Part shown: piece after piece, positions 1,554 to 48,599 of the stretch
Layout: each line of letters starts with the position of its first letter
How positions within the stretch are numbered: the stretch's first letter is position 1
Source: Pristiophorus japonicus
Taxonomy: Eukaryota
Assembly (NCBI RefSeq): GCF_044704955.1
Contig: NC_091977.1
Span: forward strand, 321,160,001-321,224,000
Direction of reading: 5' to 3'
DNA: 64,000 nt
Program-made: the position numbers and the translations under genes
The notes under the pieces: model-generated
What the model saw: the letters and a program-made list of their open reading frames with translations, nothing else
Told to the model about the DNA's origin: nothing
The model's database searches: none

Positions 1554-1668
1554 CCACACATGTGACATTTGTACTCGCGAACGCCAAGGTGCCGTTTGAC
1601 GTGATTACGGGCATCTCCTAACTGTGCTGTTGCAAAGTTGCAGAGGGTGCATCGGAAAGGTTTCGATC
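1554..1668 (-). CDS. ZNF407: ZNF407 internal coding exon (115 nt, phase 1 in, phase 2 out)
   Basis: Minus strand reads ttttaaattcag|GA TCG AAA CCT...ATG TGT GG|gtaagt. It translates (G)SKPFRCTLCNFATAQLGDARNHVKRHLGVREYKCHMCG, continuing in frame from ...HIRTHTG of the large exon and matching vertebrate ZNF407 as I recall it. Missed by the ORF track. Confidence 0.95.
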
Positions 1669-6240: not shown

Positions 6241-6599
6241 TTACATGTAGAAGATTGGAGAGGGGAAGATATCCTCTGCATGCGACAACCTTGTAAACCT
6301 GTTCTTTACAAACTGATTTACAATTTTGTTATAGAGGAAACCTGTCCTGGTCATCTCAGATTTTTATCCAGGAGAAATGAAGGGGAACTTGTTAAGTGTG
6401 AACAAACAAGATGCAGGTCATAAATAACATTTGAAAATAAACCATTTTTGAATACAAAGCTATTTAAAAAATGTTTACATTTTGATCCTTTAGGACAAGG
6501 TCTTAACAAATGACGAATTTGAGGTTTGCATTAGCCATTCGCTCCAGTTCGGTTTCATAAACAGACCCATGACCCAACGGTACCTTTATCACCCAGTAT

Positions 6600-7790
6600 C
6601 TAGAGAGGGGATTGGAGGGGGAGGGAGAGAAGAGGGGATTGGAGAGGAAGGGAGAGAGGATCAGAGGGGTAGAAAGAAAGCGAAATCGGAGGGGGAGGGA
6701 GAGATCGGGGAGGGGAAAGAGGGAGAGCGAGAAGAGATCGGAGGCGGGAGGGAAAAGAAAGGAGATCGGAGGGGGGAAAAGAAAGGAGATCGGGGGGGGG
6801 AGGTGGGGGGAGAGGAAGGAGATCAGAAGGGGCGGGGAGGGAGGAGATCGGGGAGGGAGGAGGGGGGAGAGAGGAGATCGGGGGGGGGGGGAAAGAGGAG
6901 ATCGGTGGGGGGGGTGGGGGGGGGAGAGGAGATCAGGGGGGGGGGGGGGAAGAAAGGAGATCCGGGGGGGGGCAGAGGAGATCGGGGGGGGGGGGGGGGG
7001 CAGAGGAGATCGGGGGGGGGGGGGCAGAGGAGATCGGGGGGGGGGGGGGGGGAAGAAAGGAGATCCGGGGGGGAGGAGATCAGGAGGAGGGGGGGGTGAA
7101 GAGGGGAGGGAGATCTGGGGTGAAGAGGGGAGGGGGATCAGATATGTGGAGGGGAGGGAGGAGATCGGGGGGGGGGGAAAAGAGAGGGGGGGGAAGAGAG
7201 GGGAGGGAAGGAGATCGGGGGGGTGGGAAGGGGAGGGAGGAAATCGGGGGGGGGGAAAGGGGAGGGAGGAAATCGGGGGGGGAGGGGAGGAGAGGGAGGA
7301 GATCGGGGGGGGAGAAGATCAGAGGGGAAGGGCGGGGGGAGGGGGGGAAGAGATCGGGGGAAGAGATCGGGGGAGGAAGGAGATCGGGGGAGGAAGGGGA
7401 GGGAGGAGATCGGGGGGGGGAGAGGGAGGAGAGGGAGGAGATCGGGGGAGGAGATTGGGGTGGGAGGGGAGGAAGGAGAACGGGGGGGGAAGGGGAGGGA
7501 GGAGATCGGGGGGGGGGGGGAGAGGGAGGAAATCGGGGGGGGGGGGAGGAGGAGATCGGGGGGAAGGAGGAGGAGATTGGGTGGGTGAGGGGGGGATCGG
7601 GGGGGGGGAGGAGGAGATCGGGGGTGGGGGGGCGGGGAAAGAGTGGAAAGATCGGAAGGAGAAAGAGGAGCTCGGAGACAGGGAAGGTCAGTTGCTGGGG
7701 TGGTGGCGGGAAGTCAGGAACTCGGAGAGATCAGGAACTTGTTGGAGGCGGGGGGGGGGGGGGGCGGGGGAGATCTAATTGACAACAGTG
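6600..7790 (+). repeat. G/A-rich degenerate tandem repeat with core GGAGATCGGGGG
   Basis: Dozens of GAGATC/AAATC cores separated by G runs; extreme purine strand asymmetry. Confidence 0.95.
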
Positions 7791-20903: not shown

Positions 20904-22293
20904 AAGTATATATGTAAAGCACATAGAAAAAAATCTTGATGCATTGTCGATTGTAAAGTGTACTCAGCTATACAAATAATTTGCTCAATATTCAAACTTT
21001 AAACTGCAAAGAACCTGAAAGCTTTTATTTTTGAAAGCTGACAGTTATATTTATGCAATACTTGAGTTTAATTGAAATTATGTCAAATGCAAAGAGTTAA
21101 GTAGTGATGTTGTATGATAGAGAACTAAGGATTGGTTCCCTGTTACCTTCATGCAGCAGGTATTTAATAATGGTTAGAAAATGAAGGACAGCAACCCGCT
21201 CCAAAATTCTGCACTGTGGTGATTTGAATTTGGGACAAGCACAGAGAAAGCGCCAAGCAATAAAACAGGCACATGCCCAGAAAAAATGCAAGGGCATTTT
21301 GTAAAGAAAAGTATAAATAAAATCAGACAAGTCAATCCAGGATGCTCTCGTGAACCTTATGAAACAAACAAACACCTGGGACCCAGGCAATGGTGTCTGT
21401 AAAAGAAAAACTGTCCAGATCACACATGGATCACTCCCCAATCTTATCAAAAAGGTAAAAACATAAAATAAATTTCAAGTTTGTATTTCCAGTGACCTGT
21501 GTCACTAGATCACTTCAGTTCCATTAACTAATTTCATTCATCTCCTCATGAAGCAAACCTGGATGGTATCCAGTATGTTTTCTCTTACCCTCTTACAGCC
21601 ACTTCCTCATACATTTTAATCTGTTCATCCAACCACATTTAATTTCATAGTTGTAATGACATCACAGAAAATATTACTGCACTTATCCAGTGATCAATTA
21701 GATCTATTCATGCACAAGACTAGTAACCATCTATAGTAAACTGGAGGGGGGGGGGGGGGGGGAGGGTGGCAGGAACAGCTTACAAGGGAAGCAAATACTG
21801 GTAGGTGTGTGTACTTTTTCTCAAAGTATTCCCTCGTTTTCCCAAAAGTAAAATGATTAAATCAGCAGAATTTTGTTTGACAATTTTTTGTGCCCACTGG
21901 GAGATTATCAAACGAGGTATCCCTCCCCACCAACCTGCTCTGAGGGGGCCTCACCATTGCAGAGATCATCCTTGGCAGTGCCAATGGAAAACAGTGGGGA
22001 CCACCAAGACTTCGATTTGGCCCGAGAGGAGCCCATTCACAGGGTACTTGTTGGAGGGGGTGCCGATTTATGTTGTGAGGGTTTTGTCTAAACTTTCACA
22101 AAGTTTCAATGACTGGGTTGGTAATTGGTTGGGAGGTAGGAGACAGAGAGGATAAAGGGAATGTACTCTGATTGGCGGGATGCGACAAGTGGTTCCCCGG
22201 GGATTTCTACAGTAGCGTCAGCTTTTCACCACATAAGTATATAACTTGGGTGAAGGAAGAGAGTTGTATATCCAAGTTTGCAGTTGATACTAT

Positions 22294-22701
22294 GGGCTCA
22301 ATTTTCCCCAGCGATTTACACCGTTTTTTTTGGAGCAGGCTGCTCTTCTTGGCCTAAGTTGAAAAACCACAGTTTCCCCAATCAATTGGCACCAGTGTTA
22401 GTCAGTTAGTTACGATTTTTTTAGGTCAGTTTTTTTTTCAGCTAAAGGGGGCGTAACCAGCCACCTACGCCAATTAGGGAAATTTAGCCGGCTGAATGTT
22501 ACTCCAGTTCTGCTTAGGCTAGCGTATGTGGCCTCTGCTGAAAAACCTTCCCTAGAGTTAAGGAAATCGGCGCAGGTAAGAAAATTTACGCAGCAGCTGC
22601 CCAGACACACTAAAAAAAAATTGAAAAACACACAGCAGCAACTTACCTCCAACCCTGACCGAAGTCTGTCCGACCCCATTCTCGGTCCCTGGTTCACACA
22701 C

Positions 22702-22763
<62 letters not shown>

Positions 22764-23171
22764 GAGTAGAGTAGAGTAGAGTGAGAGAAGAGTAGGAGTA
22801 GAGTAGAGTAGAGAGAGATAGGGTAGTAATAGAGTCGTCGAGGTATATTCCAACCGGGAATGGGACTGGACCGGCAAGCCTTTCGAGCGGGGTTGGAAAG
22901 TTGCTGCTATGTGTTTTTCAATTCTTTTAATGTGTTGGGAGCTGGTTGTATGCTTCAGCTCGCATTGTGTCCCTGGTTACCATGGCAGCCCGATCTTTTT
23001 GGCGCAGATCAAGGCTCCACCCCCAACACTAAAGGTCGGGTTAGGCCATGCCAAAATGAAGAAATCCAACGGGGAAACTTAGAATCTCTTTTTGGGGCGT
23101 ACTTAGGCCCCCAAAAATCGGGCGTAACTCTTCAAGTATGCCAAAAAAATGATTTGGGGAAAATTGAGCCC
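22294..23171. mobile_element. PIF/Harbinger-type MITE, 878 bp
   Basis: Perfect 17-bp TIR gggctcaattttcccca; 3-bp TSD TAT (22291-22293, 23172-23174); same terminus as the coding element at 43358. Confidence 0.93.
22707..22830 (+). repeat. (GA)26 microsatellite followed by (GTAGA)n
   Basis: Seen directly, inside the MITE. Confidence 0.95.
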
Positions 23172-23270
23172 TATGTTAGTAAGCACAGTGCGTTGCGCAG
23201 ACGAGAAGAGGGAATTACAAAAGAACAGACAGATTAAGGGAGTTGGCAAAGCTGTGATAGATGGAGTTCA

Positions 23271-27848: not shown

Positions 27849-28399
27849 TTCTTTCACCACCAATTCATTCTTGTAGCACAAGCACATCCACTGCTAGAAG
27901 CTCCCAAGTTTGAATGTCTTGCTATCCACTTGAAACAGTTCTCTTTTACCATAGCCCACGCCACCTTCACACATGGACTTCTTCAACGGCACTTTGCGGT
28001 ATATTATAACCCTCATTTCAGTTTCAATTTTTACAGGATAAAGCAGGTCACAAATGGTAGTGCTAAACCACAGAAAGGTTAGAAACCCTTCATAAAAGGA
28101 CCTCATTCCGTACAAGAAGCAGGCGATTTTCATCTAGGGACAATGATTCCCGGAGATTGTGGGAGATGGAGAAGTTGGAAATGCTAGTATCCCAAGCCCA
28201 CTTTCTAGAGCACTGCAATAAAACATCCTATGAGGAAAAACTCTCGCACAATATTTCCAGGAACACTGAAAACATGCAAGACCCTTGCTTATCCAATATT
28301 AGTGTAAATATTCCAAGTTCTTTTTATGTCTATGCAAGATCTTCTCAGGCTTCCCAAGCTGGCCTGCCCAGGACTCACCTGGACAACATCCCAAAAGAA

Positions 28400-31515: not shown

Positions 31516-34052
31516 AGAACATAAGAAATAGGAGCTGGAGTAGGCCATTCGAGCTTGCTCCACCATTCAACAAGATAATGGCTGATCTTCTACCTCAACT
31601 CCACCTTCCCGCACTATCCCTATATCGCTTAATTCCCAAACATTTATCAATCTCGGTCTTGAATATACTCAACGACTGAGCATCCACAGCTCTAGAGTAG
31701 AGAATTCCAAAGATTCACAAACCTTTGAGTGAAGAAATTTCTCTTCATCTCAGTCCTAAATGGCCGACTCCTTATTCTGAGACTATGACCCCGTCTTCTA
31801 GATTCCCCAGCCAGATCACCTCTCATTCTTCTAAACTCTAGGGGATATAGGCCTAGTCTACTCAATCTCTCCTCATAAGGCAATCCCTTCATCCCAGGTA
31901 CCAGTCTAGTGAACCTTCATTGAACTCCCTCAAAGGCAAGTACGTCTTTCCTTAGTTAAGACCAGAACTGTACACAATACTCCAGGTGTGGCCTCACCAA
32001 TGCACTGTTTAATTGTAGTAAGACTTTTTACTCTTATACTTTTAATCCCTTTGTAACAAAAGCTAACATACCATTGGCTTTCCTAATTGCTTGCTGTACC
32101 TGCATGTTAACTTTGTGATTCATACGCAAAGACACCCGGATCCCTCTGGATGCAAACATTTCCCCGTCTCTCACCATTCAAAAAATATTCTGCTTTTTTG
32201 TTTTTCTTACTAAAGTGGATAACTTCACAATTCCCCACATTGTATTCCATTTGCCATGTTCTTGCCCACTCAGTCAACCTACCTATATCTCTCTGCAGTC
32301 TCTTTGCGTCCTCCTCACAGCTTACTTTCCCACCTAACTTTGTATCATCAGCAAACTTGGATATGCTACACTCAGTTCCTTCATCCAAGTCATTAATATA
32401 GATTGTAAATAGCTGAGGCCCAAGCACTGCTTCGCTAGTTACAGCCTGCCAACCTGAAAAAGTCCCGTTTATTCCTCCTCTATGTTTTCTGTCTCTTAAC
32501 CAATCTTCAATCCATGCTAATATATTGGGCTGGAATTTAATCAAAAACCGCCACCACTGTTCACCGCCCCAAAAAAACGGCATGATTATTCAATTAAGAA
32601 CGGCGGAAAATTAATCAAAAAATGGAAAAAAATCCACCCGGCGGGAAAAATCGCCATTGCACGTGGATTCTTGGCGGAAAACGCGATCCTCGTCAAATTT
32701 AGTCTGAGGCGAAAAGTTGGGCCTAAATTGCAAAACATTCGCAGGACCCTTTTCCAGTGAATCGCTGCAAAAGAATTTAAAAAACAAACTTTAACTTACC
32801 TTTTTTTTTGCAGGGTTTCATACCTACCGCCGATCGAAGGGCTGCACCGGCTGGTTTCTCCTCGGCGTTTTTTCCCCCACCAATTACGGATCACCACTAC
32901 CACCAACTTGGGCGGAAGCGTTTTTTCGTGTTGCACGCCGGCGGTCCGATCCCCAGCGGTACTTCAAAACCGTCGACGGAACACTTTGATGAAATTTCCA
33001 GCGGATGGTTTTACACCAAAAACGAGGAATACCGTCTGATGAAATTCCAGCCCATTATCCCCAATCCCATGAGTCCTAATTTTGTGTAATAACCTCATGT
33101 GTGGCACCTTATCGAATGCTTTTTGAAAATCCAAATGCACTATATCCACTGGTTCCCCCTTATCCATCCTACTAGTTACATCTTCAATAAACTCTAACAG
33201 ATTTGTTAAACATGATATCCCTTTCATAAAACTATGTTGACCCTGCCTAATCATATTATGATTTTCTAAGTGCCCTGTTCCCACATCCCTAATAATAAAT
33301 TCTAGTATTTTGCCTACTACTGATATTCGCTAACTGGCCGAAAGTTCCCTGTTTTTTCTCTTCCTCCTTTTTAAAAAAAAAAATAGCGGGGTAATATTTG
33401 CTACCTTCCAATCCTTGGAGACTGATCTAGGGAATTCTGGAAGATTAATACCAGTACATCCACAATCTCTGCAGCTACCTCTTTTAAAATCCTAGGATGC
33501 AGGCCGTCAGGTCCAGGGGATGTGTCGCCACTTACTCACATTAATTTCTCCAGTACAATGTCTTTACTTAAACTGATTTCTTTAAGTTTCTTATTCTCTC
33601 TAGACCCTTGGTTCCACTTTATTTCCAGAATGTTTTTTGTGTCTTCTACTGTGAAGACAGATACAAAGTATTTGTTTAATGTCTCTGCCATTTCTTTATT
33701 GCCCATTATGATTTATCCTGTCTCTGTCTCTAATGGTACCACATTTACTTTCACTAATCTCTTCCTATTTACATACCTATAGAAACGTTTACAATCTGTT
33801 TTAATGTCTCTTGCTAATATGCTCTCATGTTCTTTTTTCTTTTTCATTATCAATTTCTTGGTCCTCCTTTGTTGAATTCTAAAATCCTCCCAATCTTCAG
33901 GCTTACTACTCTCTTTGGCAACATTATAAATCTCTTCTTTTGATCTAATACTATCTTTAACTTCTCATTAGCCACGGTTGGACCACTTTTCCTGTAGGAT
34001 TTTTGTGCCTTAAAGGAATGTATATTTATTTTAAATTATATATTAATTCTTT
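31516..34052 (-). mobile_element. CR1 LINE, 5'-truncated, interrupted by a MITE
   Basis: RT motifs [13 protein letters not shown] and [12 protein letters not shown]; aagaacataagaa tail at 31516. Confidence 0.9.
32527..33053. mobile_element. PIF/Harbinger-type MITE, 527 bp, CpG-rich
   Basis: TIR gggctggaattt(a/c)atca (16/17 match); 3-bp TSD ATT; removing it restores the CR1 sequence ctaatatattatcccc. Confidence 0.9.
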
Positions 34053-34251
34053 ACACTACATCTCATACCACAGTTGAGAACCTGCCCGTGAACAGAACTT
34101 TTCCCTGTCCACAAATGGGAGGAAGTCTCCACAGTTTTTCACAGATCATCCTTCAGAGTAGGTACATATTGCTGCAATCGATTTTCTAGAATTAACAAAA
34201 ACATGGGGGGCGGGAACTTCAAGTAAATAATGTCAACATTGACATACGTAC

Positions 34252-37200
34252 CAGTATGAGTGCGGATGTGAGCAAGAAACGCCAGTGAATTGCTGCTCTT
34301 GCAGGCCTTTCCACAATACTTGCAGACGTTGCCTTGATTCTCCTGCCGCTCACAGTTTATCTGTTCCGTGTCTTCCACAATGTACTTATTCACTTCCCTC
34401 AGCATTTCCTCATGCTTCTGCTTGATGTGCACAAAGAGGTCCTGCTCGGAATCAAAAGGTGTGCTGCACTTGACGCACTTGAAGGTGGCGCCGCCTTCTG
34501 GCAGCTCTTCAATGCTCACCTGTTCGATTCTCTGGTGACCCACACTGGCCAAATGCTGGTGCAAGTTACTCTCTGTGTAAAACGACTTGCCACACAGCAA
34601 GCAGTGGAAATGTTTTTCTGCTGAAGGATGCTTCATGGCAATGTGAACATTCAACCCACTTATACCATCAGCCAGGAACCCACAGTCCTCACAGGGAATA
34701 CGTTTTGGATCGTGCAACGAAGATCCTTCGGTTTTCCTCTTCCTCGCAACTGGCGAAGGATTAGTCTTGTAAACTGCAACCGTCCACTCATTGGGTGAGA
34801 TTCCATCGGGTCCCTGGCTATCTTCACTATTGTCAGTGCACTCAGATTTTTCAACTCTGAACTTGTTTTTTAATCTTACTATGCAGGCATCAAACTCAAA
34901 ATATTTTTGCAATCCCTTACTCTGGAAATCCAGCTTTGTAAGGCCATCACTGGTACTCTCAGTTACTTCCAAGGCATCACTTTCCAATTCTTGGCTCATT
35001 TCATTTGCACTTTTCGTATCCCAGTTCTTCTCTCTTAATGCTGCTTCAACTTTGTTTTGTGCATCTAACAGAGCCTCATCCACTTCAAAATCATGTTGGT
35101 GCTCAGTGTCATCCTGCCTTGACACCTCTGCTGTAGTCGGCTCTATGATGTCTTCATAGTTACTATCAATTTGTTGTACAAGGTTAACTTGGAAGTGATC
35201 AGAGTTCTCAGGCTGCTGAAGACTTGCAACTTTCAGATGTCCATCTTCAATTTGTTCTGTAATGCTACCTTCACTACCTTCTGCGAGGGCTGAAAGTTCT
35301 AATTGCACTCTTTTTTGTTTTGTCAAACCATTGTAATTTGGCAGGTTTTCATCTGTATCATTTGGTGCGTTATCACAGTTCGATCTTATTTCCGTTGTCA
35401 CCTCAGTCGGTTTAAAATTATGTTCTTCTTTCTGTCTCTCGTCAACCTGGGAACCTGCTTGTAAATCGTCATCTTCTGTCTGAGAAGCTTCAACACTTAA
35501 ATCAATATTATCGTTACTCTTCACACTGGTTTTCTGCAATGTGACAATGTCTACACAACACCTGCTCGAATCTTCCTCAATGCGTACCTCAGAAATCTGA
35601 TTTTGGGTTGCTTCCAGTACCGCTGACTTTACTGGTGCAGAATTCAATTCTGCAGAATGACCCTCAGTGTCTAAAGATACATCTGAGTGCGCAGTATTTG
35701 CCTCTAATATTCCAGATTCAGCTTCAGAGCAAATTTCTGAATTACACACAGTTGGCAGAGTCTGAACATTTTCTTCTTTAGCCAATTCATTTTGCAATGA
35801 TTTTTCCTCACTTTCTGCCGTCTTAAACACTGCTATTGTCTCTTTCGAAGCACTGGCTACTTCATCGCTTTCTGGTGCTTCCTCAATTTCAATGATATGT
35901 AAAGCAAATACCTGGGTAGCATCTTGAGGAATTTCTGAAGCTTCCTCTTCTTCATTCCAACTCCCTTTATCCAGAAAATCCTCATTCTCTTCCTTCTGAA
36001 TTCCATTCTGTGATGCATCGGTCACCGGTGTGCTGGATTCACTCACTTCATATTGTCCTTTATCCTGATTTAATTTGAGGTAGGACTGACTTTTAAGCTT
36101 ATGCTTCTCTGTAAATGCATGTCTCATCATTTCACGCCGAGTGACAGCGTAGTAATCGCACGCCATGCAATAGTAGTCAAAATCTTTAGTGTGCTTACGT
36201 TTGACGTGTAACTCAAGAGTAGCGAGGGAGTAAGCAACAAAGCCACAGTACACACAAGTATTAGCATGGTTTCCTTTGAGTCGTTTTGAACTGGATGAAC
36301 TTTCATCTTGCACTGTATTATTTGGTTCCACATCAAGAACTGCCTCCGTGAATTTTTGATTTTTCACATTCTGTTGATTTTGTGCAGACAGAAGACTCTC
36401 TAAATTTACACAAGTACAGTTCTCAGTGCTCCCAGACTGGCTCTCTGCATCAGGAATCTCTGGTTCCAAAACTTTGCTGCTGTTTTCAACACATTCAGCT
36501 GAAGTAAGTGCAGCAGCGTCAGTCTCAATCACTTGTGGGTTACCCTTGTTAGGGGATACAGTAATTTTTCTGCAGATTTCAACAGTCTTGGAGACATCAG
36601 CCCGATTTTTGTGTTTCTTGGTGTTGCAGTGACGGTCCATGTCTCCTTTGGTGACAGTGTAATAGTTGCAGGCCTTGCAGAAGTAGCTGTATTGGTGACT
36701 GTGTTTCCGCCTTATATGAATGTTCAGGTTTGTGACACTGGAAGCCAACAGACCGCAGTAAGGGCAAGTTCTCGAAATATTTCCTTTGGGGCGCCCTCTT
36801 TTAATGCTTTCTGCTAACTGAAGATCACTGTCTTTTTGAACATTTTCCACATTGCTTGCATCACCTTCTGATATCTCCCAAGTTACAACAAATTCCTCTT
36901 TGGATTTTGATGGCTCAAGCACCTGAACACAGCCTTTATCTATTTCAGTATAAACATTTCCTAAACCCCCAGGGGTCTTCATGGTTTTTTGAACATGCTG
37001 AACCCCAAGAGAAACTTCTTCCACGCACTCCTCCACCGATGGGCCAAGATTTCTTTTCTTAGCATTCTCAATGTGCCTACTCCGTTTAATATGTTTTTCC
37101 ATGGCTTCCTTGCTAATCGTGTAGAGGCTGCACACTTTACAAAGAAAGTGATACTCTTGTGCATGTCTCAGTCTTATATGTTTCAAAAGCACTGTGGCTG

Positions 37201-39727
37201 ATCGAGCTTTATAAAAGCAGTTCTTGCACTGTAATTGAGGTCTGCTGTGTGTTGAGCGTCTCAATATATTTCCTGCAACTACTCTTGCAATGGAAGGCTT
37301 CGGAAGATCTTTTAACGAAGGGCCTGCTCTTGGTACAGTAAGTTCTTTACTTCCATCTGATGAGATTTTATTCAGCTCCTTTTCTCTCGGCTGCTGTCCT
37401 TCGGTTTGCTCGGTCTGCTGTGGGAGTATATTTAGTGTGTGCTGCTCAGTACCTTCATGATTCGCTAGATCCTCTTCCGATACAAAGTGCAGTTTGCAAG
37501 CCGAGCAGAATGTCATTTTGTGTTCTTGGTTCATGTGATCCTTAAGAGTTTCTTCATCCGAGGTCACAAACGCGCAGAGTCGACAGTCAATCTTGGAGAA
37601 GTTCATTTGATGCCTATTGCTTTGACAATGTTTTTCAAAGTCGCCTTTTGTGACACATGCATAGCCACACGGTTGACAATGAAACTCCATTTCTTTCGTG
37701 TGACGCCTCTTTATATGCACCTCTAAGCCCTTTCTGTTCTGAAATAAATGGCCACAGTAGGAACAAGTGCGGAGGGCTTTACGGTCGGCAGGGCTTAGCT
37801 TCAATTCAGGATTCTCAACATTGGCGGCTTTGTTTTCTGCTGGATAGGCAGATGAGGACTGAAGGGTTTGATCCTGTGAAGTACTTTCAATGCTGTTTTC
37901 AACCAATGTTGATGGGTGAGGAACTTCTGATGGGGTTGATTCCCCTTCCTGAATGCCACTTGAGCAACTTATTTTAGAAGCATTCCCATTCTCTAAGTTT
38001 TCATCAGTTGCACTTGGTAAGTTTGCATCACTACTTTTATCTTGATTCTCAGGTTTTCCATCAAGGTGGTCTGTTTTTTTGGCAATTATTTTATTTATTG
38101 GTTTTATACCACGATTCTTCCTTCTAGGAAGTCTGCCTCGACCTCGCTGCGCTTCAGTAAAAACCTCTCTCCTGGGAGGAAACCGGCCTCTATTTCGACT
38201 TTTATCCATCGTCAAAAGGCTACCTCTTCCTCGAAGATTTCTTGGAACCCTTTGGTTCCCCACTTCTTCCTTGGTAAATCTGCCCTTACTTCTTGTACTC
38301 CGAACGTGTTCAGAACCATCCTTGTAACGCGCACTGCGCGGTCTCAGGCTGACGATATTACCTTTATCTGAGCGCCTTAGTCTTTGATTACCCATCTGTT
38401 CTTGGGGAAGATTAGTTGGTTCCTTTACTTTTCTCAAACTTCTTTTGAGAGATGCTTTTCCAACACTACAATTATTAAGCTCTTCTCGTTCATTTGCTGT
38501 TGGTGCTTTTTCACTGATTAAAGCTTCTGCACAGAGACCGTTACCACTGTTCTTAAACTTCTCCAAATGCTCAGTGCTTTTAACATCCTTCTCGGCAAAA
38601 CTTCTGCTTCTGGTTCTTCTCAAATTTTCAGGCTTCTTGCCCAAGCTCAACTCATCATTATTAACACATTTTGCACGCTCTACATTGTCTTTTGCATCAT
38701 AATCACCAGAAAGTCCCTTTTTGGAGAGCAAATGTATGTACCCGCCCCGTGCAGCAAGATTCTTACGGCGAAGGTGAGTCTTTCCACGGCAGTGGGTTTT
38801 CAGTAGATTTTCATCATAACACTGGTAGCCGCAGAGGTCACAGTTCAATCTTTTTCCTTGTACATGCTTGTGCTTGAGATGTGCTTGCAAAGATGCTACA
38901 CTCTCCGCCTTGAATTTGCACTGAGGGCACATGTGCGCCTTGGATCGTTTGGAATGATTCTCTTTAATGTGTTTGTCCAAGTCATAGCGCGAAGGCAATA
39001 ACTGGTCACAGAGCCTACAGTTAAATCCTTCCTTTGTGCTTGTAGTTTTACTTGTGCTTTTAGCTTGGTTTTTATGGAGAACTGAACAAATATGCTTTCT
39101 GTAGCTCTCCTTTGATGGGCTAATAACATTGCAAATATCACAAATGAAATAATTATCATTGAAGTGGCATTGCTTTACATGAGTTTTTAGTGCAGTGTTA
39201 TTTTTCGCTGTAAAGTTGCAAGAAGAGCATGGCTGACCTGCTCTAACTTTGACTACCTTAGTTGTATTCTGACAATCTCCTATTTGTCCTTCAGGTTGTG
39301 CATTGGATTTCTTCAGGTCATTTTGCACGTGCCTGGTTTCTGTCTGTGCTGGCTTTACTTCACATAGCAAAGCCGAGGATTCGGCAACCACAATATTCCC
39401 GCTACTCTGAGATTCTTCCAAAGTGTCACGTTTCTGTCTTTTGGCCGGAGGTTCATCACCACCACACGGACGCTTGCTACCCTCTGTTCCAACCTTGTTT
39501 TGTCGGATGTCATCGGCGAGCGCCTTTATTTCCGAGACGCCGCTTACATTCAAGTCCTTGGCGTTCTCTGGCTCAGCGCTTGTTTTTCGACTGCAAAGTC
39601 CGATCGACTCAGTCTGTGGATCTTGTGCGAGCACAGATGCTGCTTCGGTTCTCTCGCTTTGCTCTTCGTTGGCTGGTAACTGAACAGCGTCACGCTCGGA
39701 ATCTTTGGATTTTTCATTTAAATCCAT
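34252..39727 (-). CDS. ZNF407: ZNF407 large first coding exon (about 1825 codons; many C2H2 and matrin/U1-type zinc fingers, AT-hook)
   Basis: 1862-aa ORF with ZNF407 signature segments GKTHLRRKNLAARGG, CFYKARSATVLLKHIRLRH, KRGRPKGNISRTC..HIRRKHSHQYSY and LAFLAHIRTHTG. Donor ACT G|GTACGT at 34252/34251 is phase-compatible with the 1554-1668 exon. Confidence 0.96.
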
Positions 39728-39811
39728 TGTTGCAGCATACGATGAAGGTATTTCATGTTGCTGCCAGGGAACATCAGTAGAACAGAACAGATCTCGCCAT
39801 TTCTTTTGACC
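39728..39811 (-). other. ZNF407: 5' part of the ZNF407 large exon upstream of the ATG (5'UTR or in-frame extension)
   Basis: Polypyrimidine tract and acceptor tttttctctgttatatttag|GGTC at 39812/39811; 84 nt to the ATG. Confidence 0.75.
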
Positions 39812-42505: not shown

Positions 42506-44065
42506 GGATGTGTGGCAAAGTGACCATGAGTTTATCAGAAAGGTACAAATGATATTTACCCTAATTGAAAGTTACAAACCGTTGCTAATAATACACAATT
42601 GTGAATGTGTTTTCTAAAAAAAAAAGCCACACATTAATTCTCTTTCCATTGCTACACAGTCCTGTTCCTGCCAGAAGTAAAGGATGATTTAGAATCTAAT
42701 GCATTATTGACATCAATGCTGATTCGCAAAAAAGATAAAAGCAGGATAGTCACAAGAACCTGTCTTGAAGAATTAGCATCTAAATTCCCCAAGGATACTC
42801 ATGATATCACACTGAACCTCTTTCAAAACAATTACTTCGTCTGCATAGTGCCACTTCCACACCAGTCATATTATGCAAATGCTTTGCTACATTTTAAGAA
42901 AGTGACCCCAGTTCTTCAGGCCCTCCCCGCCCCACAATATTTTGTACAGATGTGGTAACTGTCCATACAGCCCGGAAAGTTTCACTGTTCAAACCTTAGG
43001 CTGTGGATGTGTGTGTGGCGGGGAGAGGGATGGTTGGGAGCAGGGGGGGTGTTAGTAGGGACACTACAATTGGTTCCAACATATTTGGGCAAGGCAAGAA
43101 AGCTGGCCAAGGAATGTGCTCTGCTTGCTACCCCTACCAACCCTGTCAGAAGTTCTTGTTGGAAGGAAACAAGTCTGGATAAACACGTGGATGCAAATTG
43201 TAACAACGTAACAACGAAAGTTCATGACTACTACTTCTGAGCTCACTTTTAAAAGGCTGGATCTTTGCCACCATTCTGCTCCGTTTTTTGGCCTCTGTTG
43301 TTTTTTTGGAGCAGACTAAAATGTGCAAGTTTTGCCAAAGTTTCTGCGCCATTTTAAGGGCTCAATTTTCCCCATTCATTTGCGTGCGCTGTTTTTTTTG
43401 GCGTATTTATTTTTTTCAAAGTTTTCCCCTGCGATCTGCGCCGGCGTAACTGACTTAGTTACAATTTATCTTGGCCAGTTTTTTTTACGTCATGCCTGTA
43501 CCGGTTTTTTCAATTGTTCACAGTTTGGCCAACATTTATTTCTCTTAGGTCGTCGTATCTGGCCACTCCCAAAAAAACCTTCTGGTGAGTTAAGAAAACC
43601 AGCGCACACACACAAATCTGTGCTGAAAGACGCCATTGTTTTTAAATCGAAGATTTTGGAGGGAGTCAAGAACACTGTCAAAATCAATAATAAAGTTCAA
43701 CTTTTTTTTTAAACCTGTCAACGTAGAAGTGTAAATTTGTTGGATTTCAGAAGTTCTCATTTCTGTACTCACTCACACGCCACCAGCGAACGTCTTGAAG
43801 CAGGGCTGGAGGGGCATAGCTTTGACCCGGGCACAGGGGCTCGGCTACAAAACAAACCGTTTGGGGGGGGGGGGGGGGGGAAAGAGAGAGAGCGAAGTAC
43901 CAATCGGAAGGCTTGGAGCCCGGGGAGGGGGAAGAGAGAAGTCACAAGACTCCAATTAGTAAAGAGGGGTGGGTGGAGGGGGAAAAAAAGAGAGAAGTCA
44001 CATACTGACCTGGAGAGATATAACTACAAACCTGTGCTGCCTGCTCTCAAAGGTTAAATTTAAGT

Positions 44066-45250
44066 ATGGGGACAATACTGACAATGCCATACCTTGTGCA
44101 AGCTTTCTGCATCATGGTGCTACGTAGGAGACAATTGATTCGACTTCATCACATCAGGAATATCAGAGCCCGTAGGGTGCTGGGCAGGAGGCCTGACTCA
44201 CCTAAGGTATATCGAGATAAGACTCCACCTGAGTGATGCAGACTGTGTCAGAAGGCTGTATTTCCGCAAAGAAGTTGTAAGTGAGATCTGGGAGTTGGTC
44301 AAAGCAGACCTGCAACCTGGAAGCATCAGGAGGACTGCTCTAACAGTTGAAGTGAAGGTTACAGCTGCACTTTCATTCTAAGCCTCCGGATCGTTTCAAG
44401 CTACAACTGGGGATGTGTGTGCCATCTCTCAACATGCAACACCTGTCTCCATTTGCCAGGTGGTGGCTGCACTGTATGCACAGAGGAATGACTTCATCAA
44501 GTTCCCCATGACCGCCCAAGCAATCCATGACAGGACTGTGGGCTTCTCCAGGATTGCTGGCTTCCCAAAGGTACAGGGCTACATTGATTGCCTCACGAGC
44601 ACCGTTGAAGGATTCCGAGATGTACAGGAACAGGAAAGGCTTCCACTCCATTAATGTGCAGCTTGTGTGATGACATGCATCATATCATGTCAGTCGATGC
44701 AAGATATCCTGGCAGCACCCATGATGCGTTCATCCTACGCGACAGCGTTATTATCTGCCATGTTCCAGCAGCAGCCAGAAGGGCAGAGCTGGCTACTGGG
44801 AGACAAAGGGTATGGCCTTGCCACCTGGCTCATGATGCCCCTACACGTAACCCGGATGGAAGCTAACTGTCAACACAACATGTCGCACATTGCGATGCAC
44901 AGCATCATTGAAAGGACCATTGGCATATTGAAGCAGCATTTCCGATGCTTGGACCATTCCGGAGGCTACTTGCTGTACTCCCGAGATTGTCGGTCAGTTC
45001 ACTGTTGTGTGCTGCATAACTTAGCCATCATGAGGCAGCAGCGCCTGGTAGTGGAAGACCCACCTGCGGTGAGAGCGGCTGATAGTGATGTGGAAGATGC
45101 AGGTAACGAGCAGGAGGAGGAGCAGGAAGCCATACAAGTGCCTGAGGTCGGAGCATGACAGCGGAGGAGGGCAGGCCATCGTGCCCCTTTAACGATTGCT
45201 TGAGCCTTGCGCCAGCAGCTCATCCGTGAACACTTTACTGATGCCGGAGG
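44066..45250 (+). pseudogene. Harbinger (HARBI1-like, DDE_Tnp_4) transposase remnant
   Basis: F*ASGSFQ, GFPKVQGYIDC, NRKGFHSINVQLVCD, YPGSTHD, WLLGDKGY, IERTIGILKQHFRCLD; stops and frameshifts. Confidence 0.92.
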
Positions 45251-45539
45251 GCTCAGCGACAACTATTCCACATGGACATATTTATTGTTTGGAGCTGTTC
45301 CGTAATGTTGTGTTGGGTTAATGGAACATAGTTCAGTTTTAATGTAAAATATATTTTATTCAAAAATTTACAATGTACTTAACTTAACTTTAATAAAATT
45401 ATTCTTGTATCAAACTTTACTTTAATATCACTCTAAGATCACTTAAAAACTTTAAGATCACTTATAAACTTGTAAATTTACATAACTTACAAAAAACTTT
45501 TAATTTGAGAACAGTTGCAACAGTAACAATAATAACAAC

Positions 45540-47203
45540 AGCAGCAGCAGCAATGAAAGGCTGCACCTTTCTCTCATCCCCCTTATTCCAAGACCGCCCG
45601 CTGCGCTTGGTCTTGAACACTCCACCACAGGCGATGGCGCAGTGTTTCCAGGCTTGATACCAAGCTTATTCTTTCTAACATCTCGGATGCTGCACACCTA
45701 GAGGGTGGGGGGCGTTGGCGTCAGGCAACAAGTTGGAGGGCCCGGCTTTGGGCTCTTCAGAAGCTGGTCTGGGGATTGGAGTGGGAGTGACAGTTGATTT
45801 TGTCAATGGGCGCGGGGTCTGGGCGTGTTCCATTATTGCAGCAGCTAACTCCAACATGCCGTCCCTCATGCGTCCTGACAGTGTCCCAACGACCTGCAAC
45901 ATTCCCTCCCTCATGGTCAGTGACGTGGTTTGCACTACCTCAGACATTCCTTCCCTCATGGCCATTATTCCTTCACTGATGGTCCGGATCGCGTTCCCAT
46001 TTCTTGTGTCATTGCTGTTACTTCTCCCGACAGTCCCACTACCTCATCACTCACCCTACTGATGGCGTCCAGGAGTGATCCGGGTAAGGTCAATGCTCTC
46101 CGCACTCAATGAAATCATCTGAACCACATCTGTTAGATCCAGCACCTCAGGAGAGAGCGGTCGAGCTCTCCTTCCCCTCCTCCCCATGGGTGTGGCTCGC
46201 ACCACACCACTGGGACCCGCAGCCTGGGATGGTGGGGCCCTGGGTGTGCCTTGCTGCACACCACTGGGACCAGCAACCTCGGAAGGTGGGGCCTTGGGCG
46301 TGCCTCACTGCACCCCACCACTGGGACCCGCAACCTCGGAATGTTCCACCAACACTCAAACCATTAGTCATGGAAAGGGCCATCACTTCTATGAGCGGAA
46401 CCTCCTCCAAAGTCAGTACAATAGTGGGAGCTTCATCCAGCTCCATCCACTCCACCTCATCCCCATGGATGGATTGGAAGATGTTCTCCTCTTCAGGCTC
46501 ATCCACATCTGAATCTTCTTCTGCATCGTCAGGGTTGGCCTCAAGTTCTGCAAACGATAACAGAACAGTCAAATGGTTAGCAGCAGAGGAGGGAGCAGGG
46601 TATGTGGCATGAATAGGCTTACACATCGCAGGCCAGGCAGCAGGCTGATTTGATGGGCCACGACAGGACTTACCCTCTCCCTCGAGTGTGGGCCCAGCTT
46701 GTGCAGTACTGATTGCTTTTTTCCAGGCAGGACCCATCAAAGCAGCGACCCTCTCTTCCAAGGGTGTCAGTGGGTACAAATTTGCTGGGCCTCCTCCTGT
46801 TCTTTCCCTTTCATTATGTGTCACCTTCTTCTGCAAAGATGAAAATGCAACTTTTTAGAGAGGGTGTCTTTCTGCTGGGTGGGACATATACAGCTGGTCA
46901 CATTTACAATTGCAATTGCATTGAATAAATGAAAATATTACTTACACTAACTACTTGACCAAGGTCCTGTCACTTCTTTTTACACTCTCCTCCAGATCTC
47001 GTAGTGGTCACCATTGCACAGTAACCTTCTGCAACTTGGTTCCAGCGTTTCTTCATTTCTTTGGGTGGAACTTTTATGTGACCTCTGCTGGTATCCAGCT
47101 CCTGCCATCTGTTCTCAACCACAGTAACTAGTGCCTCCACTTCTTCCTGTAAGAAATTCTTGGTCGTTGCAGCGTGTTGAATCTTGTATTGCTCCAGCTG
47201 CAA
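45540..47203 (-). pseudogene. Harbinger Myb/SANT-like (MADF/MSANTD-type) DNA-binding partner remnant, 3 exons
   Basis: KNFLQEEVEALV..RWNQVA..RSGGECKKK*QDL then RERTGGG; GT-AG introns at 46831-46945 and 46548-46673; acidic region follows; 3' boundary approximate. Confidence 0.85.
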
Positions 47204-48599
47204 TTTTTACAACGCTCTCACACAGCACTCCTTCTCACACACACAACTGGCTCTTTAAATATGGCCGATTACCAAATCTGAGTTGTACTGAGCATGCGCG
47301 TCCACTGGAACGACGTCTTAAACACAACTTTTTTTCTCGCGCATGCGCAGAAGTTGCGACTACATTTTTTGGTGCAGACAGCAGGCTCCACCACCCAAGG
47401 CGACTGGACACGCTGCGCAGCGCAAAATTCGAATTACACATCGAGGAAACTTTGGCAAAATATTTCTGGCACATTTCTGGCCTAGAAAAACAGGCATAAC
47501 TCTGGCAATACGCCAGAAATCGGGTCTAAGGTAGGTACATCGATTTTTTTTTTAGTTCCCAATTTTATTACGTCACTGGGGGCAGAACCTGCCAAGTGCA
47601 CCACTTCTGGTAATTGAAGAGAGTTTGTCCAAGTACGATCTTTTTCTAAAATGGCGCACTGCATCCTTCTGAAAAACCTTCCCTACACTTATGGAAATCG
47701 GCACCGAGAAGAGAAAATTGGCGGAGAGCAGGCATCATTGTTTCAGCGGAGCTGAAGACACAGTACCGAGGGTGCGGGGGCCTTTCAGCCCGGGATAGAA
47801 GCTAGCCGGTGCGGGGGCCTTTCTGCCCGGGATAGAAGCAGACCGGGGGGAGGGGGGGGGGGGCGGCGTTCTGCCCGGGATTGCAACGGCACTGACACTG
47901 TAGACATGAAAAAAAATCAAGAAATGCTTAAAAGGAATAAAGGAATTTCATATTGTTTCATATATTGAGATTTCAGTCTGTTGTCCCAAGTCTCACTGAG
48001 TGATCTATTTTACAAAGGAGAAATGCTTTATTTGTGCCTCAGCCCTTCAGTGTGTCCCTCATTACCCTGGCAACCTCAGTTTTTCGGCGCAGTCCTTAAG
48101 CTCCACCCACAGAGCTTAAGGACAATCTGCGCCGCTCCAAAATGAAAGGTTATGCCGGCGAAACTTGGAGCTTTTTTTTGGGGTGCAATTGGGCCACTTA
48201 AAATTTTTTTTTTTTTTTTTAAATCGGACATACCTCTACAACTGCGCATAAAAAAGTCCATGTGGAATTTTGGGCCCAAAGTTGCTGCTACCTCATTGTT
48301 TGATACAAGTTACACTATTTAGTAGAACTGTTTTGTTATCTGAATCGAACATGTGAATAGCAAGCACAGTACACAGTTCAAAGTGCTCTCAGTGTTGAAG
48401 CTTTGCTCCATTTCCAATCAGGCAAAGAAACAGAAAAGATCGATCGAACCTCCTGACAGAAAAAGAAATCATCACTTAGATAGTAAATTAGGAGTGAGTT
48501 GCGGCTCTACCCTATCCTTAAAGAGAATGAAAGAGATGACATACAAGCTATTCTGCCCTACTGGCCTTCTTACTGTTTACTGTCTGTTGTCCAACCGAC

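Follow-up and report, generated by a model that had tools for sequence, protein, structure and literature searches.

We conclude that a 42-nt stretch carried by a MITE within an intron of the ZNF407 gene of the sawshark Pristiophorus japonicus is probably a silent pseudo-exon, a by-product of the sequence of the MITE, and that it is skipped in the ZNF407 transcripts examined. All positions given here refer to the window, that is, the whole 64,000-nt stretch of DNA that was analyzed. A database protein labelled ZNF407 from this sawshark matches the queried region with 100% identity, and the intron is enclosed by the following two exons:

34252 to 39811, minus strand: large ZNF407 coding exon upstream of the intron, ending ...HIRTHT-G, its start placed by the extent of a stop-free frame; spliced contigs end at its donor.
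1554 to 1668, minus strand: next ZNF407 coding exon after the intron, reading G-SKPF...HMCG; its first 30 nt continue the spliced contigs and its 3′ end is taken from the sequence.

The host intron (34251-1669) is 32,583 nt long and of phase 1. Its true donor, CTG/GTACGT (34246-34254, minus strand), follows a coding exon of more than 5 kb and pairs weakly with U1 (-4.4 kcal/mol). The cassette lies well inside the intron, and the signals that an earlier, sequence-only reading had described around it were all recovered, in the order (TC)26, AC, (TG)5, AACCAG, 42 nt and GTAAGT on the minus strand:

22707 to 22758, minus strand: (TC)26 microsatellite, ending 18 nt before the cassette.
22691 to 22865, minus strand: AG-free zone of 175 nt, in which YTNAY branch-point-like words are confined to -94 and -18.
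22689 to 22706, minus strand: (TG)5-AACCAG acceptor left over from a 37-bp minisatellite unit, its AG probably derived from CCGG via a CpG transition.
22647 to 22688, minus strand: candidate 42-nt pseudo-exon, with an AG acceptor and a GT donor, both inside the repeat.
22641 to 22649, minus strand: donor GAG/GTAAGT, ancestral to the MITE family and within its inner inverted repeat.

We judged splice sites by simple counts and by pairing energies with the U1 5′ end, and branch points by a scan for YTNAY words rather than by a scoring model. By these measures the donor, a perfect AG/GTAAGT as had been stated, is strong, ranking second among the 1701 GT sites of the intron by U1 pairing, and AG/GTAAGT occurs just twice in the intron. 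The stretch of about 175 nt without AG ahead of the acceptor was likewise confirmed (going upstream from the acceptor AG, the next AG is met after 177 nt), and it ranks third among the 2068 AGs of the intron. Locally, then, the donor and the AG-free zone are outstanding, yet both are accounted for by the repeat family and the microsatellite. The tract closest to the acceptor is weak, with pyrimidines at 6 of 14 positions, a figure equalled or bettered at 655 of the 948 YAG sites in the intron, and at its 5′ end the AG-free zone showed no branch-point-like word in the simple YTNAY scan. It is at this point that a second reading has to be weighed, in which the cassette is a real minor cryptic exon, included at a low level or in few tissues by way of the -94 branch point and the (TC)26 tract and held down by PTBP1/2, the protein with 14 additional residues being a rare by-product with no selected role. 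The ranks of the donor and the AG-free zone speak for such an exon and the poor proximal tract and missing branch-point-like word speak against it, and on the evidence here and below we consider it unlikely.

The cassette is, as had been claimed, a multiple of three and stop-free in phase 1, which is the phase of the host intron, and its inclusion places 14 extra residues in frame inside HT-GSKPF. It is also without stops in all three phases, so that an open phase-1 frame is no indication of a fit to the ZNF407 intron, and phases 0 and 1 are stop-free in all 30 family copies examined, which makes the open frame a trait of the family. Among the 240 YAG...GTRAG pairs of the intron that are spaced 25-250 nt apart and have a proximal tract at least as good, 14 are likewise in frame and stop-free. 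Since in-frame inclusion of an exon would escape nonsense-mediated decay, the open frame counts in favor of the minor exon to that extent.

Transcript evidence points to skipping. A zero-difference contig joins 34252 directly to 1668 in each of the three matching runs (X9-X11), and among the contig rows listed this skipping junction is the only one seen. These runs come from one study and their kind is unrecorded, so they are taken as RNA-derived only since their contigs are spliced; 96-98% of the large-exon words are present in them. The count left out runs X2-X8 (0.10 share) and run X1 (another species, with 48 differences in 750), although the X1 contig likewise stops at 34251 and runs on. 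Depth over 34233-35000 equals the depth of the single exon contig in each of the three runs, and there is therefore no second contig at the end of this exon. That skipping alone is seen weighs against the minor exon, with the proviso that contig assemblies drop rare forms, that the join result covers the rows listed and that inclusion at a few percent is compatible with it.

The contig of run X9 stops precisely 30 nt into the 1668 exon (window 1638-1668) in a fork-like manner, and those of X10 and X11 run through; the stop could reflect a variant at exon base 31 or a different upstream partner. We rejected it as a trace of inclusion, since a join to the cassette would place the break one base earlier and cause a further break at 34252. 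A fork of this kind could also be cited for a third reading, that the cassette donor is used with another acceptor or with a transcript start inside the MITE, or that the MITE hairpin merely modulates splicing of the flanking exons. The strength of the donor and the long stem predicted for the element fit with this, as does the report that inverted intronic Alus alter splicing of neighboring exons (PMC2533698). However, distances of 11.5 kb and 21 kb separate the MITE from the exons on either side, and a join from the cassette donor would, by our reasoning, break the contig one base earlier than is seen, because the cassette donor and the upstream exon both end in G. We give this third reading almost no credence.

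Protein models agree with the contigs. TGSKPF is unbroken in 137 of 153 ZNF407 proteins (isoform X1 with 2566 aa, isoform X3 with 2114 aa and 135 other spliced models); among the remainder, nine run into the intron at the same point, one is a divergent fragment model and six are without the motif, and no in-frame linker insert is present in any of the 153. Exonization of the cassette as put forward in the sequence-only reading is therefore not borne out, the contigs giving the skipping junction only and no protein model holding the insert.

Could the insert nevertheless serve a selected switch between isoforms, comparable to WT1 +KTS, with inclusion uncoupling two zinc fingers and altering ZNF407 binding? 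KTS comprises three residues, arises from an alternative donor and is conserved, whereas the cassette supplies 14 residues from a lineage-specific repeat and its isoform is a candidate. The likeness is that in both cases the insert lies in frame within a linker joining C2H2 fingers (PMC5934627), and in the sawshark its place is precisely within a TGEKP-type linker, with the frame kept. The linkers of ZNF407 matter, as a point change, S1685W, in the linker of fingers 18-19 causes human disease (PMC4070100). We rejected the possibility that S1685W is in the same linker as the cassette; its linker is TGEKS, 119 residues further on, and by offset we infer that the cassette's linker is the one between fingers 14 and 15 in the count of PMC4070100. 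Human isoform 3 was also rejected as the same site, given that it diverges elsewhere, at residue 1625. Against a selected switch, every one of the spliced models in which the motif continues (137 of 137) has an uninterrupted linker, which is not what is seen in a conserved linker isoform of the WT1 +KTS type, and any insert in the same intron would share the linker position, which follows from the position of the intron. In addition, nothing points to constraint on the MITE, which is a young repeat, and the 42 nt differ from the family type at about the neutral level of the family (end branch of this copy 0.066 vs. a median of 0.053). We regard a selected switch as extremely improbable.

What, then, is the element that carries the cassette? 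That it is a MITE, as had been proposed, was upheld by its terminal repeats, 3-bp target duplication, lack of coding content and copy number:

22294 to 23171, no strand assigned: non-coding MITE filed as Harbinger-type, 878 bp, internally palindromic, with perfect 17-nt TIRs.
22294 to 22310, plus strand: TIR at the low-coordinate end, with TAT target duplication at 22291-22293.
23155 to 23171, minus strand: TIR at the high-coordinate end, with TAT target duplication at 23172-23174.

The two 17-nt TIRs are 100% complementary, the fold of the element has a z-score of -6.26 with a long stem predicted, and there was no Pfam match in its three long stop-free frames (0 of 3) and no Rfam match. A first look at the genome gave 4702 MITE candidates; copies are ~86-90% identical to the ZNF407 copy, and the median length of 82 full elements is 801 bp. 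Perfect 3-bp direct repeats flank 30 of these 82 elements vs. 5.1 expected from shuffled pairings, and flanking repeats of other lengths are at expected levels (2-bp, 13 vs. 14.2; 4-bp, 0 vs. 0.6). Flanks that are inverted rather than direct were considered and rejected, being at chance level (4 of 82 vs. 5.6). The share of perfect duplications is low considering that copies are ~5% from their ancestor; possible causes are exchange between copies or mis-paired ends in our script. A tree of 49 copies is star-like, with end branches near 0.05. In open-access main texts we found no prior description of the family or of shark MITE exonization; repeat libraries such as Repbase or Dfam may already name it.

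The assignment to a class draws on a second element within the window:

43358 to 48277, no strand assigned: decayed Harbinger-like element with the same left TIR as the MITE, a broken DDE transposase gene (plus strand) and a broken Myb/SANT gene (minus strand).

Its left TIR is identical to the MITE TIR at 16 of 16 positions and its right TIR has 4 mismatches; the transposase matches PF13359 (DDE_Tnp_4, E 1.2e-11) and the other gene PF13873 (Myb_DNA-bind_5, E 1e-05). The two genes are convergent and lie inside the ZNF407 region. Subterminal similarity between the MITE and this element is patchy, at 69-82%, and the inner arm and 37-mer of the MITE are absent from it. We rejected it as the source of the donor, which was not found in 43358-48277, and it is a candidate for the kind of element that mobilized the MITE. 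Harbinger elements have a two-gene layout of transposase and Myb-like protein and a 3-bp target duplication (PMC9179366), and on the basis of a TIR shared with a two-gene DDE plus Myb element and a 3-bp duplication we file the MITE as Harbinger-type. It resembles Tourist-like PIF/Harbinger MITEs such as the mPing type (PMC2836001 and PMC9179366) in being short, non-coding and present in many copies, in having TIRs and a 3-bp duplication, and in sharing its TIR with an element that encodes a DDE transposase and a Myb-like protein. It is unlike them in having a long inner inverted repeat around a variable core, made up of microsatellites and a 37-bp minisatellite, in having a consensus donor on both strands, and in its perfect TIR of 17 bp, which is shorter than the 25-50 bp usual for PIF/Harbinger MITEs in PMC9179366.

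The donor and the acceptor of the cassette have different histories. An exact 20-mer containing the donor has 1015 matches in the genome, and of the 82 full elements 35 have the donor on both strands, 40 on one strand and 7 on neither, which shows that the donor, lying in the inner inverted repeat, was brought in by the element and is ancestral, portable and placed opposite its own complement. The (TG)5-AACCAG sequence is the junction of the 37-bp minisatellite unit, and it is this unit that supplies the (TG)5. At the acceptor site genome matches number 441 for AACCGG, 95 for AACCAG, 73 for AACTGG and 11 for the neighboring non-CpG transition, counts that include tandem arrays; the 95 CA matches differ little from the 73 TG matches (p=0.10) and greatly from the 11 non-CpG ones (p=8e-18). 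With arrays collapsed by hand, CA loci number 69 vs. 47 TG loci (p=0.05). Decay of methylated CpG is an established mechanism of mutation, and we infer that the acceptor AG arose after insertion through such decay of the minisatellite unit. The counts and the tree together indicate that the acceptor was made repeatedly: on the 49-copy tree (acceptor site excluded, copies without a downstream TIR in reach left out, with 3 of the 46 inner branches starred) 17 changes are required for the CA label, vs. a shuffled mean of 15.4, and the label is found in both subfamilies. Inheritance of the AG within one subfamily is unsupported on the same grounds, the tree being poorly resolved.

The arrangement itself recurs. 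The AG-42-GT pattern is present in 55 genome copies, including the ZNF407 copy, and CGG-42-GT in 198, so that other family members do have the same acceptor and donor at the same 42-nt spacing. The suggestion that the cassette is portable with the MITE family therefore holds for the donor, which is ancestral, but not for the acceptor AG, which arises copy by copy after insertion. As a separate observation, minisatellite arrays with as many as ~30 copies have grown out of the 37-bp unit in the MITE core (L089:1464-2567; also L078, L062 and L036), and thus the MITE seeds a minisatellite across the genome.

A point missing from the sequence-only reading is that the donor is inside an inverted repeat and is predicted to be base-paired:

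22607 to 22647, no strand assigned: inner inverted-repeat arm holding the donor (pair I1, 41 nt, 85% complementary).
22895 to 22935, no strand assigned: partner arm, to which the donor is predicted to pair; the ZNF407 copy has an altered form.

In predictions for naked RNA, opening the donor costs 13.3 kcal/mol vs. a U1 gain of -10.2 at 37 C, and 16.6 vs. -14.4 at 15 C, and a predicted cost in excess of the gain argues against the minor exon. By comparison the opening cost is 1.6-8.0 kcal/mol for four other strong donors of the intron and 3.0 for the true donor. When the pairing span was limited to 100 nt the cost for the cassette donor fell to 5.9, and the predicted masking thus relies on the long-range stem forming in the cell. 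The family sets the ZNF407 copy somewhat apart. In 30 of the 55 AG-type copies the donor is largely paired, with a median opening cost of 19.2 kcal/mol (range 1.9-24.6, the low costs being in part from copies with the partner arm outside the folded stretch). In the predicted fold of the ZNF407 copy the partner arm is damaged and the hairpin partly broken, and G(-1), G(+1) and T(+2) of the donor bulge out; both this and the lower cost relative to the median are in keeping with a minor exon, as is a U1 pairing far better than that of the true donor. Across AG-type copies TC length ranges from 1 to 26 and the AG-free zone from 6 to 180 nt; among the 30 examined, the TC run of 26 in ZNF407 is the longest and its AG-free zone of 177 is second (median 39). 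The ZNF407 copy is, then, the best equipped of the 30 for a polypyrimidine tract, and this too can be counted for the minor exon.

Such an exon being held down was tentatively attributed in the sequence-only reading to TDP-43 and PTBP, and the two fare differently. In PMC5959245, cryptic exons repressed by PTBP have CU repeats upstream of the acceptor, and those repressed by TDP-43 have UG repeats mostly downstream of the donor and some upstream. A CU tract on the upstream side of a 3′ splice site, here (TC)26, agrees with the PTBP-type pattern, and to that extent the proposal is upheld. TDP-43 is a weak candidate, and the less likely repressor for a minor exon, because the (TG)5 belongs to the 37-bp unit and UG repeats at TDP-43 exons are mostly downstream of the donor; the cassette has (TG)5 upstream and just (TG)3 downstream. 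The exons of that report also differ in that they appear on knockdown by definition, and the UG run of the candidate cassette is short, upstream and minisatellite-derived. In humans, AG-free zones of at least 100 nt are enriched for alternative exons, often regulated by PTB (PMC1431707), a further point for the minor exon. The cassette is like the distant-branch-point exons of that report in its pyrimidine-filled AG-free zone of more than 150 nt, and unlike them in that the YTNAY scan gave no branch-point-like word near the 5′ end of the zone and in that the arrangement results from recent microsatellite expansion and is not conserved.

Taking these lines together, the history that we favor for a silent pseudo-exon would run as follows. 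The donor arrived with the MITE inside the inner inverted repeat; the AG would have been made later, here and in dozens of other copies, through methyl-CpG decay of the 37-bp unit, and slippage would have lengthened the (TC) tract. Locking of the donor in the long stem with its partner arm ~270 nt upstream and the purine-rich tract beside the AG are both predicted to leave the cassette unused, and PTBP may cover the CU tract and add to the silence. Because sharks and birds, and the animals between them, have an invariant linker here, any inclusion would presumably be rare noise against which selection would act. In this the cassette appears to work like the state of a transposon prior to exonization, by analogy with Alu (PMC2879366 and PMC2533698). 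The resemblance to Alu exons is that an intronic repeat with near-complete splice signals is completed by one point change (PMC2879366); the differences are that the sawshark element is a DNA transposon and not a SINE, that the site made by mutation is the acceptor and not the donor, and that inclusion is a candidate.

As it stands the case is an ordinary one, repeats being full of exon-shaped sequences that are not spliced. A bolder reading would have the MITE act as a self-masking exon kit of which the ZNF407 copy is furthest along and measurably included, adding 14 residues between two zinc fingers, and this we think decidedly doubtful, more so than the minor exon. If it were so, the palindrome would give a consensus donor in either direction of insertion, hidden in its own stem; the CpG 42 nt upstream would decay to an acceptor, delimiting a cassette whose length would be divisible by three and which would hardly ever contain a stop in phases 0 and 1; and activation as an exon would be confined to copies with a decayed partner arm and an expanded pyrimidine tract. 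The family offers a natural series in which one donor and one 42-nt cassette recur in 55 copies that vary in hairpin, TC length and AG-free zone, with 198 AG-less copies as controls, and with raw RNA reads this series could test RNA structure vs. repressor binding as the silencer of transposon splice sites. If the ZNF407 copy were included, a vertebrate DNA transposon would have given birth to an exon, and this within a linker unchanged from sharks to birds.

Some other features of the element and the intron deserve mention. A second strong donor in the MITE, CAG/GTAAGA at 22576 (plus strand), is antisense to ZNF407, faces inward ~280 nt from one MITE end and is kept in 36 of the 82 full elements. 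Other donors of consensus strength on the minus strand of the intron are AAG/GTAAGT at 32799 and CAG/GTGAGT at 28378, the former being predicted to be fully open (1.6 kcal/mol) and yet used by no contig. Finally, a long G-rich low-complexity tract with purine/pyrimidine skew at 6500-7780 holds AG-free zones of 556 and 515 nt, longer than any others in the intron.
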